64,000 bases of DNA from an uncultured Anaerolineales bacterium (GCA_964353865.1 CAYGXJ010000118.1:2049-66048); one strand, 5' to 3'; shown: positions 28,946-63,260, counted from the first letter of the stretch. Numbers and translations: made by a program. The notes: a model not told the origin generated them from the sequence alone.

Positions 28946-29118
28946 AGACCCCCCGCTGTGCCGTGTGCTGCTTTGTTTTGAACCTGCTTTCGCAGGTGGG
29001 AACCTGCCCGCGAGGTCAGCCTTGGCGAGTGCCTATCGCTTTCCGCGCGTGAGCTAGGGACCCTCTCAGACCGTGTTGGCTCAAAACGCGATGCTGCATC
29101 ACCAACACAGCAGGGTTG
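28946..29118 (-). ncRNA. ssrS: 6S RNA
   Basis: 5' arm ACCCTGCTGTGTTG...GTTTTGAGCC pairs with 3' arm GGTTCAAAAC...CGGCACAGCGGGGGGT; CCCACCTG-CGAAAG-CAGG element; about 175 nt; own promoter and terminator; downstream of aspS, as for the Bacillus subtilis 6S-1 gene. Confidence 0.88.
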
Positions 29119-29123
29119 CTCGC

Positions 29124-58792: not shown

Positions 58793-58946
58793 GCCCAACA
58801 ACGCGCTGCCTGCCCGGACCGCAGGCCAGGGAAGCTGACCCGGCGGGCGTCGCCTCGGTAGGAGCATGCGTGGCCTGCCGGCTTTCCGCATAGTCGCGCC
58901 AGGTCTGCCCGCTTCCGCCGGGCGGCCTAGCTCGAGGCCGTTGTGC
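58793..58946 (+). repeat. attC site 1, with a 23-bp insertion at 58809-58831
   Basis: R'' GCCCAAC ... AAGCTGACCCGGCGG / CCGCCGGGCGGCCTAGC ... R' GTTGTGC. Confidence 0.8.
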
Positions 58947-59365: not shown

Positions 59366-59543
59366 GCCCAACAATTCGCTTAAACCCCGGGCAGTCACCC
59401 GGGACGGGCTGACCCGGCGGGCTGGGTTTTCGGGGTGGCTTGTCTCGCCCGTCGGCCCGGCCTAGAGTCCTAGTGGCGTAGCCCGCTTCCGCCGGGCAGC
59501 TTGGCTCGCCTGCCCGGGCCGCAGGCCAGGGAGGCCGCTAGGC
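59366..59543 (+). repeat. attC site 2, with insertions at 59385-59408 and 59509-59531
   Basis: R'' GCCCAAC; arms shared with attC1 (CTGACCCGGCGGGC / GCCCGCTTCCGCCGGGCAGC); R' GCTAGGC. Confidence 0.8.
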
Positions 59544-61517: not shown

Positions 61518-61677
61518 GCCTAACCATTCACCGGTGCCGCCGCGGCTTCCGCCGCGGGGGGGAACACGCACTTGCCGGCCGTCTCAGAGGTCATAGAATA
61601 GAACTCGTGCCCACCACGCCGCGCGGCACCCTGGCCTGGGGCAGGTCCAAGGGGCGGGCAGTTCGAGGCCATTGGGC
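61518..61677 (+). repeat. attC site 4 (close paralogue of attC3), with a 30-bp insertion at 61629-61658
   Basis: R'' GCCTAAC; shares CTCAGAGGTCAT.GAATAGAA and both arms with attC3; R' ATTGGGC. Confidence 0.8.
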
Positions 61678-61736
61678 TTCTCTATTGTGTCATTCATGAA
61701 ATCGATATGGAAGTGTAGTTGGGAAACGTGAGTATT

Positions 61737-62181: not shown

Positions 62182-62314
62182 GCCCAACAAGGCGCTGCAG
62201 TTGACCTGGCCCCCGGCCTGGAGTCTTCGTTGGTATGTACTTCGATGACGGGTTGAGTATGATGAACCTAGTCCGGCACAGCCGGCCAGGCAGCTGAGCG
62301 CCAGATCGCTAGGC
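62182..62314 (+). repeat. attC site 5
   Basis: R'' GCCCAAC; GCGCTGCAGTTGACCTGGCC / GGCCAGGCAGCTGAGCGC arms with the typical two unpaired bases; R' GCTAGGC. Confidence 0.85.
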
Positions 62315-62359
62315 GGAGCGCGCCTCCCGCGTCTCGCCTTTCGTCAAGGAGTGAGTGCC

Positions 62360-62755
62360 ATGTCCAACAGTCAGAAGCTCAATTGGCTCAAGCAGATCCT
62401 CGCCGTCAAAACCGCTTTCACCCTGCTCGCATGGGGGCTCCCCGCCCTCCTTGCTCCCCTGTCGCTCTTCCGCCTGCTCGGTGTGCCAACTCCCGACGAC
62501 CCCTTGTTCGTTAGGCTCTTTGGCGCAGTCGTCACGGCGGTTGGGCTGGCATATTGGTATGCCTATAGGGATCCCGTCCGCAATGTGTCAATAGTCAAGG
62601 TGGGAATCCTCGACAACGGGCTTGTCACCCTCGTGATTCTGGTGTTCACTACGTTCTACGGACTCAGGAGCGTCTTCATTTGGGCTTCTGGGTTGCTCAC
62701 ACTCGCATTCTTTGTTTCCTTCATCCTGCTGATGCCGAGACCAGAGGCCGCCTAG
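62360..62755 (+). CDS. Four-transmembrane-helix cassette protein
   Basis: AAGGAG ribosome-binding site; four hydrophobic segments; P..LFVRLFGA motif. Confidence 0.75.
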   Translation: MSNSQKLNWLKQILAVKTAFTLLAWGLPALLAPLSLFRLLGVPTPDDPLFVRLFGAVVTAVGLAYWYAYRDPVRNVSIVKVGILDNGLVTLVILVFTTFYGLRSVFIWASGLLTLAFFVSFILLMPRPEAA

Positions 62756-62796
62756 CCTCGCCACTTCGCTGCCGGGTCTTTTGCCACGCCTAGCCA

Positions 62797-63260
62797 CTTC
62801 CATGAGAAGGCCTTGCTTGTCAAGGGTCGACGTGGCGACCCTGTGGGACCCATCCTCCAAGCGTAGCCCTTTCGCCTCACTTCCATCCGCACTCTTGTGG
62901 GCCCAGGCTATGAGCCCGGTGCCTGTTGGAGTTCGCTCCTGGGGGGCGCTGCCATCCCCGGCCTGCGGCCTGGGCAGGCCCACTGTCGGTTTCCGGCTTT
63001 CGCCGGCCAAGTGGTTAGCCGCAGTCGCCTGAACGGGGCGTAGGCTGGGGATTCGGGTCGCACGGTCGCTTAGGTCTCTTCCTTGACGGTCTTGGTGGTG
63101 GACCTTCCTGCGCACTGCAGGTGCGATCAGATCACGCCGGCTGGGCTATCGGAACCTGGTTGCCAAGTGCCTGGGACGAATGCTCGGGGTTGTAGTCATC
63201 GCCAGTCTTCCAGAGCCGGTGAAGCACGATGGCAAGCTTGCGGGCAATAGCCACGACAGC
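62797..63260 (-). mobile_element. IS110 family (IS1111-type) remnant: transposase C-terminus plus right non-coding end
   Basis: AVVAIARKLAIVLHRLWKTGDDY at 63132-63260; about 330-bp 3' non-coding region ending CTTGACA..GGCCTTCTCATGGAAG. Confidence 0.8.
62860..63040 (-). ncRNA. Putative bridge/seek RNA in the IS non-coding end (boundaries approximate)
   Basis: Four short segments match the insertion flank, the attC L'' box and the IS terminus (see findings). Confidence 0.55.

Follow-up and report, generated by a model that had tools for sequence, protein, structure and literature searches.

Integron attC sites are structured and are recognized as structures by integron integrases. Among the insertion sequences (IS) that enter these sites, the IS1111-attC group was reportedly defined by Tetu and Holmes in 2008 as a monophyletic subgroup of transposases including ISPa21 and ISPst6. 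These two elements are described as insertions close to the 5' end of attC and antisense to the cassettes (PMC3001079), and attC-targeting IS1111 elements known together with their seekRNAs include ISKpn4, ISPst6 and ISPa25 (PMC11187229). IS1111-group transposases have also been noted in surveys of environmental cassettes (PMC11089894). As presented in the seekRNA study (PMC11187229), the RNA of IS1111-type elements has its match to the top strand of the target 5' of its match to the bottom strand, both including the core, and a GL-P----S(T)G motif is a trait of the C-terminal domain in the IS1111 group. As ISfinder uses the name, members of this group have subterminal inverted repeats, 7-17 bp long, and short extensions beyond them at the termini.

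Here we analyze an element that, in our judgment, is very probably the relic of an IS1111-type insertion in attC with a guide RNA of the seekRNA or bridge type encoded in its 3' end. It lies in a stretch of 64,000 nucleotides, hereafter called the window, which corresponds to positions 2049-66048 of contig C118 in the genome of an uncultured Anaerolineales bacterium (G000). An earlier note on this DNA had proposed an attC-programmed guide built from four short segments, numbered 1 to 4 below.

The element and its genomic setting

The segment 62797-63259, on the minus strand, is recognizable by its similarity to relatives as a truncated IS1111-type (IS110-family) insertion sequence of which the right-hand part is left (table 1). 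A full-length copy is present on another contig of the same genome, C80, which is the sole carrier of an intact transposase gene in that genome. Its ORF of 358 amino acids matches PF01548 (1.8e-17) and PF02371 (9.9e-17), so that both the DEDD (RuvC-like) N-terminal domain and the IS116/IS110/IS902 C-terminal domain are present, and it contains the IS1111-group motif in the form GLVPRQDQSG, with G252, L253, P255, S260 and G261 invariant across 35 aligned relatives. Non-coding DNA extends for about 310-335 nt downstream of the transposase gene versus about 95 nt upstream, another trait of the IS1111 group. Together with the subterminal repeats described below and with an insertion that is specific for site and orientation and lacks a long target duplication (the core AG alone being common to both sides), these domains, motif and downstream region are those by which elements are assigned to the IS110 family and its IS1111 group.

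In comparison with the C80 copy, the whole transposase gene upstream of approximately the last 42 codons is deleted in the window, and the remaining ORF of 61 amino acids gave no Pfam match. The full copy therefore confirms that the locus is an IS1111-type remnant devoid of its transposase, as the earlier note had it. A deletion subsequent to insertion most likely removed the left end along with the bulk of the transposase gene. The window copy cannot move on its own; besides the missing transposase, it shows an A>G change in the core of one guide, one altered base in the basal stem and an R'' box in its flank that reads GCCTAGC.

The element interrupts a cassette array that runs on the plus strand from approximately 58.8 kb onwards, with long attC sites which, judged by eye, start with GCCYAAC-NN-(C/T)TCGCT or similar sequences. 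Since the window also encodes EF-G, RpoB and AspRS, and the closest named relatives of its EF-G (about 80% identity) belong to Anaerolineales, we consider the host DNA a Chloroflexota chromosome, in line with the Chloroflexota-like host suggested earlier on. An integron integrase (TIGR02249, 407 bits vs a cut-off of 265) is encoded on another contig (G000:C45:1495-2397, plus strand), beside fragments of integrase-like genes. The next cassettes past the window (L003:1485-2377) encode, as read from translations alone, a RelE/ParE-like toxin and a Phd/YefM-like antitoxin. At the gathering threshold, Rfam searches over the window returned solely a 6S RNA (RF00013, 64.4 bits) at 28946-29119 on the minus strand and no family for the IS end; in E-value mode, the non-coding end of the C80 copy gave chance-level hits to mir-305 and uxuA only.

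Table 1. Features of the interrupted attC and of the IS relic, in window coordinates
Feature	Position	Strand	Evidence or comment
Cassette ORF, 134 aa, no Pfam match, its own attC interrupted by the IS	62351..62755	+	IS antisense to the ORF
Start of interrupted attC: R'' box GCCTAGC (canonical GCCTAAC in other copies) and CA	62788..62796	+	Sequence comparison
Terminal extension GGA (62801-62799) and shared core AG (62798-62797; CT on the attC top strand)	62797..62801	-	Homology of copies, divergence of flanks, empty sites
Non-coding 3' end (right end) of the IS, 335 nt	62797..63131	-	89% identity to the C80 copy
Right subterminal inverted repeat GGCCTTCTCAT	62802..62812	-	Partner ATGAGAAGGCC at the left ends of relatives
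Outward-facing TTGACA, -35-like box inside the right end	62818..62823	-	TTGAC in 42/42, TTGACA in 41/42 aligned relatives
Right-end mimic GGAUGGAAG (segment 4 of the earlier note)	62880..62888	-	Same place in 65/68 non-coding regions
Second domain: conserved 5' arm CGAACUCCAACAGGCACC, then hairpin GGGCUCA-UAGCC-UGGGCCC	62899..62935	-	Column 100/118: GC 35, AU 5; 102/116: CG 25, UG 14, UA 2
Basal stem, 3' half GCAGCGCCCC, containing segment 2	62943..62952	-	Column 8/69: UA 21, CG 17, UG 3, other 1
GC-rich insert of 23 nt, CCTGCCCAGGCCGCAGGCCGGGG, immediately following the left-target guide	62956..62978	-	Absent from the C80 copy; small side hairpin of its own in the fold
Predicted left-target guide, 3' arm, here ACAGUGGG	62979..62986	-	Covaries with left flank
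Apical hairpin between the guides, GGCCGGC-GAAA-GCCGG	62993..63008	-	Sequence and length vary among relatives
Predicted right-target guide, 5' arm of internal loop, CTAACCACT (segment 1)	63009..63020	-	Covaries with right flank
Basal stem, 5' half AGGCGACUGC	63021..63030	-	Columns 5-14 paired to 64-72 by RNAalifold; changes are compensatory
IS110-family (IS1111-type) transposase C-terminal remnant	63132..63259	-	About the last 42 codons and stop (63134-63132); alignment to full C80 copy

Distribution of the relatives

Whole genomes seldom contain this element: a match at the DNA level was found in 4 of the 21 genomes of the family and a match to the transposase protein (E<=1e-40) in 2 of 401 genomes sampled from the class, while the search of genome_contigs gave one locus. 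The element is abundant in metagenomes, where the matches listed include at least 120 protein clusters of 66-100% identity, some of them named Chloroflexi, Anaerolineales or Deinococcota. A relative is encoded in 545 of 594 candidate stretches from JGI metagenomes, and for comparison we kept the 80 best loci (L020-L099). No plasmid-borne IS110-family protein exceeded about 36% identity (IS4321 reached 27%), and neither of the two plasmid loci with matches that we inspected lies in an integron. An element of 50% identity occurs in two copies in genome G166, with the same layout, and is aimed at a REP-like palindrome (GTCCCGC-AG-GGACATC). Among the titles and abstracts listed by our literature searches, none concerns such a lineage of attC-targeting IS110 elements; the lineage is abundant in sediment metagenomes and previously undescribed.

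Ends of the element and its target

In 68 downstream regions, an internal (G/A/T)ATGGAAG motif and a terminal ...GGCCTTCTCATGGAAG about 83 nt further on are both present in 60; the terminus was not found in five, mostly because of contig stops, and the internal motif differs in three. The left junction, with ...GAG followed by ATTGGAATGAGAAGGCC, is found in 51 loci. Comparison of these ends across relatives defines 11-bp subterminal inverted repeats, ATGAGAAGGCC on the left and GGCCTTCTCAT on the right, with terminal extensions of 6 nt (ATTGGA) and 3 nt (GGA), respectively, and AG on both sides. The left end ATGAGAAGGCC had been predicted by the earlier note and is indeed present in relatives, whereas the boundary then given to the IS was off by about 3 nt, the true end being ...CTCATGGA followed by the core AG (62798-62797), with the flank starting from 62796. 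We found no uninterrupted GAGATTGGAAG target in the genome or in any locus, and therefore ATTGGA belongs to the IS. The C80 copy has no left flank, since its contig stops inside the left repeat; a junction initially read there as ...GGTTAGG followed by ATGAGCAC was rejected, because it is an internal 5' hairpin.

The TTGACA just inside the IS end, which the earlier note had correctly placed at 62823-62818, faces outwards and may represent half of a circle-junction promoter; the joined circle form would read ...CATGGA-AG-ATTGGAATGAG from the right to the left end. In two unrelated loci, L089 (after GTCGCCACGTCGACCC) and L010 (G014:C50), the right end is broken at a GTCGAC palindrome by a sequence rich in repeats similar to GTTCACTTTTCAAC, which suggests a second element that inserts at this palindrome.

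The flanks of the relatives identify the target. The AG is followed by NNGTT... in 44 of 51 unique right flanks, 32 of which have the strict GTTRRRY. When left flank, AG and right flank are joined in silico, attC sites of 90-165 nt are obtained; ten such reconstructed empty sites fold as attC hairpins of the form GCCTAAC-NN-CT-CGCTGGAGC...GTTAGGC, with both ends pairing in all ten (for example, GCCTAAC-CA-CT-CGCTGGAGCGGACC...GGCCGTTAGGC). In 18 of the 30 sites having enough left flank, the R box has a partner no more than 200 nt away that shows one mismatch at most, a test that is weak alone. Relative to the IS, the longest (nearest) flanking ORF runs antisense on the downstream side of 20 loci out of 22 and on the upstream side of 17 out of 22, and in the window the cassettes are on the plus strand and the IS on the minus strand. 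Flanks, reconstructed sites and ORF orientation thus place the insertion just inside R'' and antisense to the cassettes, and the expectation that relatives would insert in the R''-L'' spacer of attC is borne out. This attC position and antisense orientation are those which Tetu and Holmes (2008) reportedly use to define IS1111-attC insertions.

The unoccupied version of the target is present in contigs from two public runs, X2 (DNA) and X24 (an RNA library), which come from related strains and contain the cassette of 62310-62776 at about 95% identity. After the cassette, both continue with GCCTAACCACTCACT(A/C)GTGCC (X2 reads GCCTAACCACTCACTAGTGCC and X24 ...CACTCGTGCC), so that the same cassette is followed by an intact attC of the form ...GCCTAACCA-CT-CACTAGTG. 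Such a sequence equals the target predicted from the arms of the window subfamily and the flanks of L053 and L054, and places the IS end after CT. The target previously proposed, CTAACCA-CT-CGCTGC, is right in its CTAACCA-CT portion and wrong in its right half, which for the window subfamily is CACT(A/G)G according to the true second guide; CGCTGG is the target half of most other members of the clade. The array also contains a near-cognate unoccupied attC after an alcohol-dehydrogenase cassette (61519-61680, plus strand); it begins with GCCTAACCATTCACCGGTGCC, which by eye matches the subfamily target GCCTAACCACTCACTAGTGCC at 18 of 21 positions but has TT in place of the CT core.

The predicted guide RNA

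The non-coding 3' end of the IS in all likelihood encodes an RNA of the seekRNA or bridge type, a prediction drawn from its sequence and from its analogy with known elements. Its layout is conserved in 60 of the 68 non-coding regions of relatives that we examined. Some 100 nt past the stop codon, all relatives share the order GGGYGaCUGC-GG-(variable 7-9 nt)-CU-hairpin-(variable 5-7 nt)-AG-AU-GCAGCRCCC. The RNAalifold consensus of 42 sequences has the outer blocks paired and both variable arms unpaired, in agreement with single-sequence folds, and the basal stem and hairpins undergo compensatory and G.U-compatible changes. The basal stem and the apical hairpin would accordingly hold open an internal loop formed by the two arms.

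All four segments of the earlier note, like the TTGACA, exist where it had located them, with different fates. Segment 1 (GGCTAACCACTT, 63020-63009, minus strand), which had been matched at 10 of 12 positions to the flank GCCTAGCCACTT (62788-62799), is the real right-target guide and occupies the same place in every relative; its core CUAACCACU, at 63018-63010, complements AG plus the TGGTTAG of the right flank. Segment 2 (GCAGCGCC, 62952-62945, minus strand), taken as the complement of GGCGCTGC in another attC (62191-62198), is no guide, being buried in the basal stem (GCAGCRCCC/GGGYGaCUGC), where it stays invariant or changes in compensation irrespective of the target, and its match to that single attC is a coincidence. 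The second guide in fact lies at 62986-62979 on the minus strand and reads ACAGTG(A/G)G. In the C80 copy, L053, L054 and L089 this left-target guide reads ACAGUGAG, its ACAGTGAG-type arm repeating the left flank (CTAGTGAG in L053 and L054); its sense is that of the left flank plus the core AG, the A of which is mutated to G (at 62980) in the window copy. A further lesion of the window copy is in the first base of AGGCGACUGC, altered with respect to C80 (GGGCG...). Segment 3 (CTCATA, 62914-62909, minus strand) had been proposed to pair with the left end, but is part of a hairpin scaffold (GGGCUCA-loop-UGAGCCC); its loop and its stem both differ among relatives, and ATGAG at the left end is invariant. 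Of the segments that were expected to face each other in internal loops, segment 1 is unpaired in its loop, segment 2 is buried in a stem and segment 3 belongs to a hairpin. Segment 4 (ATGGAAGTG, 62886-62878) copies the right end at 62803-62795, both on the minus strand, and covaries with it.

At 8 and 6 nt, segments 2 and 3 are short enough to have arisen by chance among several attC sites, and neither is a guide; we nonetheless give a practically negligible probability to the view that all four matches are fortuitous, for segments 1 and 4 are conserved in position and covary across dozens of relatives.

Covariation of guides and flanks

Arms and flanks correspond to each other. AG plus the right flank has its reverse complement in the 5' arm: TGGTTAG pairs with CTAACCA, ACGTTAG with CTAACGT, TTGTTAG with CTAACAA, GTGTTGG with CTAACAC, GGGTTAG with TAACCCC and TGGTTGG with CCAACCA, the right-side classes including TGGTTAG, ACGTTAG, TTGTTAG, GTGTTRG and GGGTTA. 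On the other side, the left flank plus AG recurs in the 3' arm, as in CAGCGAG, CATTGAG, CTGCGAG, AATTGAG, TTTGCAG, GAATGAG, AGCTAAG, GAGCGAG and AGATGAG, and in the (C/T)AGTGAG of the window subfamily. Several relatives, namely L020, L047, L075, L098, L023, L015 and G166, are retargeted to sites other than attC, and their arms follow: TCACTTT/AAAGTGA in L020, AGCCTGT/ACAGGCT in L075, AGTCTG/CAGACT in L047, CTGCCCG/CGGGCAG in L098 and GCTCCAG/CTGGAGC in L015 on the right side. In a quick tree, members that do not target attC nest among those that do; L020 is sister to the C80 copy (SH-aLRT 100), L023 to L068 and L073 to L028, and L047 falls inside a starred group.

For the 51 unique pairs of the right side, 327 of 408 positions match versus 250 +/- 6.5 in shuffled pairs (maximum 279), and for the 41 unique pairs of the left side 196 of 246 versus 151.6 +/- 5.1 (maximum 174). 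None of 20000 permutations reached the observed value on either side, figures that overstate independence because the sequences are related; the case for covariation rests on about 8 distinct guide classes on the right side and about 10 on the left. Misfits are L082 on both sides, L073 on the right, and L047 and L068 on the left. The covariation of guides with flanks, which the earlier note had set as a check, is therefore seen for both arms, and supports its proposal of an attC-programmed guide in the non-coding 3' end. Arms, flanks, covariation and fold combine here as they do, at the level of sequence, in seekRNAs and bridge RNAs. The two arms would jointly specify the attC sequence GCCTAACCA-CT-CACT(A/G)G.

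The same similarity could be a by-product at the DNA level, with a captured piece of attC or a resemblance aiding homologous or illegitimate recombination, and a protein that reads the folded attC hairpin in place of a guide RNA. Integron integrases do read structured attC sites, most targets share one consensus, so that arms and flanks match partly by shared ancestry, and the guide RNA is known here from sequence alone. Yet both arms change with their flanks also at the non-attC sites of L020, L047, L075, L098 and L015 and at the REP-like site of G166, and the stems that keep their loop in place show compensatory and G.U-only changes, which make sense only in an RNA of the transposase strand. 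The same layout, moreover, is reported as experimentally proven to be a guide RNA in ISEc11 and ISKpn4 (PMC11187229). We thus regard a guide-free explanation as very improbable.

Second domain and donor end

Further towards the IS end, the predicted RNA contains a second conserved domain with the right-end mimic GGAUGGAAG, which is identical to the terminal CATGGA plus AG. Its GGATGGAAG portion is conserved in the clade and becomes GGATAGAAG where the right end is CATAGAAG (G166 and L096). We consider this mimic to be probably the donor (right-end) guide, and through it the second domain would recognize the donor end. A comparable correspondence can be seen by eye in published non-coding regions, with GGATATG accompanying CATATG in ISKpn4 and GGATATA accompanying CATATA in ISPst6 and ISEc11 (PMC11187229). 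Segment 4 is followed by a block, AG-YRAGGY, which is paired to the right repeat GCCUUCU and shows only G.U-compatible changes; this argues for an RNA of the transposase strand that reaches the IS end. No guide for the left end was found among the second domains of the relatives; the 5' arm of this domain corresponds to the left-end extension of the main clade (TCCAA) and to that of L096 (CCCTA), but not to those of L037, L041, L094 and G166.

Proposed mechanism and state of the relic

Our explanation may be outlined as follows. The IS would have entered attC in antisense orientation, between box R'' and box L'', and its non-coding 3' end would encode the guide RNA on the transposase strand. 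Direct observation covers the anatomy and ends of the element, the two-sided covariation, the compensatory changes in stems, the attC targets and the empty site. By analogy with ISEc11, ISKpn4, ISPst6 and IS621, we infer that the RNA would be made and, bound to the transposase, direct recombination at the core.

The relic itself might still produce its RNA, either serving the C80 transposase in trans or interfering with it. Its non-coding end is 89% identical to that of C80 with the same right-target guide, its 23-nt insert is present also in the elements L053, L054 and L089, and the bridge RNA of IS621 is described as working in trans (PMC11208160). RNA-library contigs cover the region 62794-63014; they are 90-99% alike, may derive from DNA carry-over or other copies, and do not allow strand or ends to be read. 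Against such a role, the RNA of IS1111 elements is thought to be co-transcribed with the transposase from the circle-junction promoter (PMC11187229), which is absent from the relic, promoter evidence for the relic is lacking, and its guide core and basal stem are altered. We therefore judge an active relic RNA unlikely.

Small inserts and solo ends in attC

The 23-nt insert that the earlier note had recognized is real, given its absence in the C80 copy, and is not peculiar to the window, since the metagenomic L053, L054 and L089 carry it in their guide. As a GC-rich unit, CCTGCCCRGRCCGCAGGCCRGGG, it has six copies in the genome and none in a reversed control: three in the window, at 62956-62978 (minus strand), 58809-58831 and 59509-59531 (both plus strand), and three elsewhere in G000, at C80:12724-12746, C97:1055-1077 and C28:14234-14256. 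Two copies are inside attC sites of the array and one is inside the guide loop of the IS, while L039 and L045 carry the unit in attC. The unit resembles a very small insertion that goes into hairpins.

Just past the window, a match of 95 nt limited to the right end occurs at C118:66372-66466. It includes a solo fragment of about 83-85 bp in the next attC (L003:1512-1594, equivalent to G000:C118:66384-66466, minus strand), some 340-420 nt beyond the window end. Starting at the IS terminus, the fragment reaches back precisely as far as the AG of the internal mimic (GGATGGA-AG), and on the plus strand CT borders it at either side. Mis-excision, with the guide-encoding DNA acting as a pseudo right end, could have produced it, as could a deletion at CACTT microhomology. 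Its removal in silico leaves an attC-like sequence of moderate fold (-17 to -20 kcal/mol), in which the R boxes are unpaired.

A broader reading, which we advance tentatively and hold to be rather doubtful, joins two propositions: that this lineage gained attC targeting independently of the proteobacterial IS1111-attC group by reprogramming two arms of 7-9 nt, and that its donor-guide DNA serves as a pseudo right end, so that mis-excision leaves scars of about 85 bp in attC, such as that at C118:66384-66466. The lineage would then land at the equivalent position, just inside R'', and IS traffic would permanently remodel the recombination sites of cassettes.

Comparison with known systems

With the relatives collected here, RNA-guided IS1111 recombinases from outside the Proteobacteria can be studied in a clean and naturally occurring data set, with dozens of sets of arms, ends and flanks, several naturally retargeted members and a matching empty site. 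They fix the core dinucleotide and guide lengths for a new family of orthologues, a candidate programmable recombinase, and show that in sediment Chloroflexota the invasion of chromosomal cassette arrays takes place at the attC position that is also hit in clinical integrons.

Group IIC-attC introns equally insert near the 5' end of attC and antisense to cassettes (PMC3001079), but possess a ribozyme and a reverse transcriptase instead of a DEDD recombinase with guide RNA, and neither of the former is present here. The closest parallel for the retargeted L020, L023, L047/L075 and L098 is that of ISEc11 and ISXne4, in which, as reported, stems are kept and target arms swapped for a new site (PMC11187229); their targets are linear and not attC, and the evidence on our side is comparative. 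With the bridge RNA of IS621, the predicted RNA shares two guides that flank a hairpin in an internal loop, one directed to the bottom strand on the left side of the target, the other to the top strand on its right side, and both including the core dinucleotide, CT on one strand (PMC11208160). It differs in that the RNA is in the right end rather than the left, the order of the guides is reversed and the element has long subterminal repeats; no clear donor loop with two arms was found here, the right-end mimic alone being evident.

The nearest counterparts are the IS1111-attC elements ISPa21, ISPst6, ISKpn4 and ISPa25, which have in common with our lineage the DEDD transposase, the subterminal inverted repeats, the long downstream non-coding region, the insertion at the 5' end of attC antisense to cassettes and the top-strand match lying 5' of the bottom-strand match. 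In the published sequences of ISKpn4 and ISPst6, the non-coding region has by eye a similar succession of stem, 5' arm ...TAACAAT, hairpin, 3' arm, CGAAC... and hairpin, and GGATAT(G/A) repeats their own right end CATAT(G/A) (PMC11187229). Guide sequences, terminal repeats and core context are different, the transposase is of 358-359 amino acids versus the typical 330-350, and the host belongs to sediment Chloroflexota instead of Proteobacteria. Because a seekRNA or bridge RNA has already been demonstrated for the attC-targeting ISKpn4 and ISPst6, the window element does not reveal a new mechanism; it represents a new lineage using a known one.
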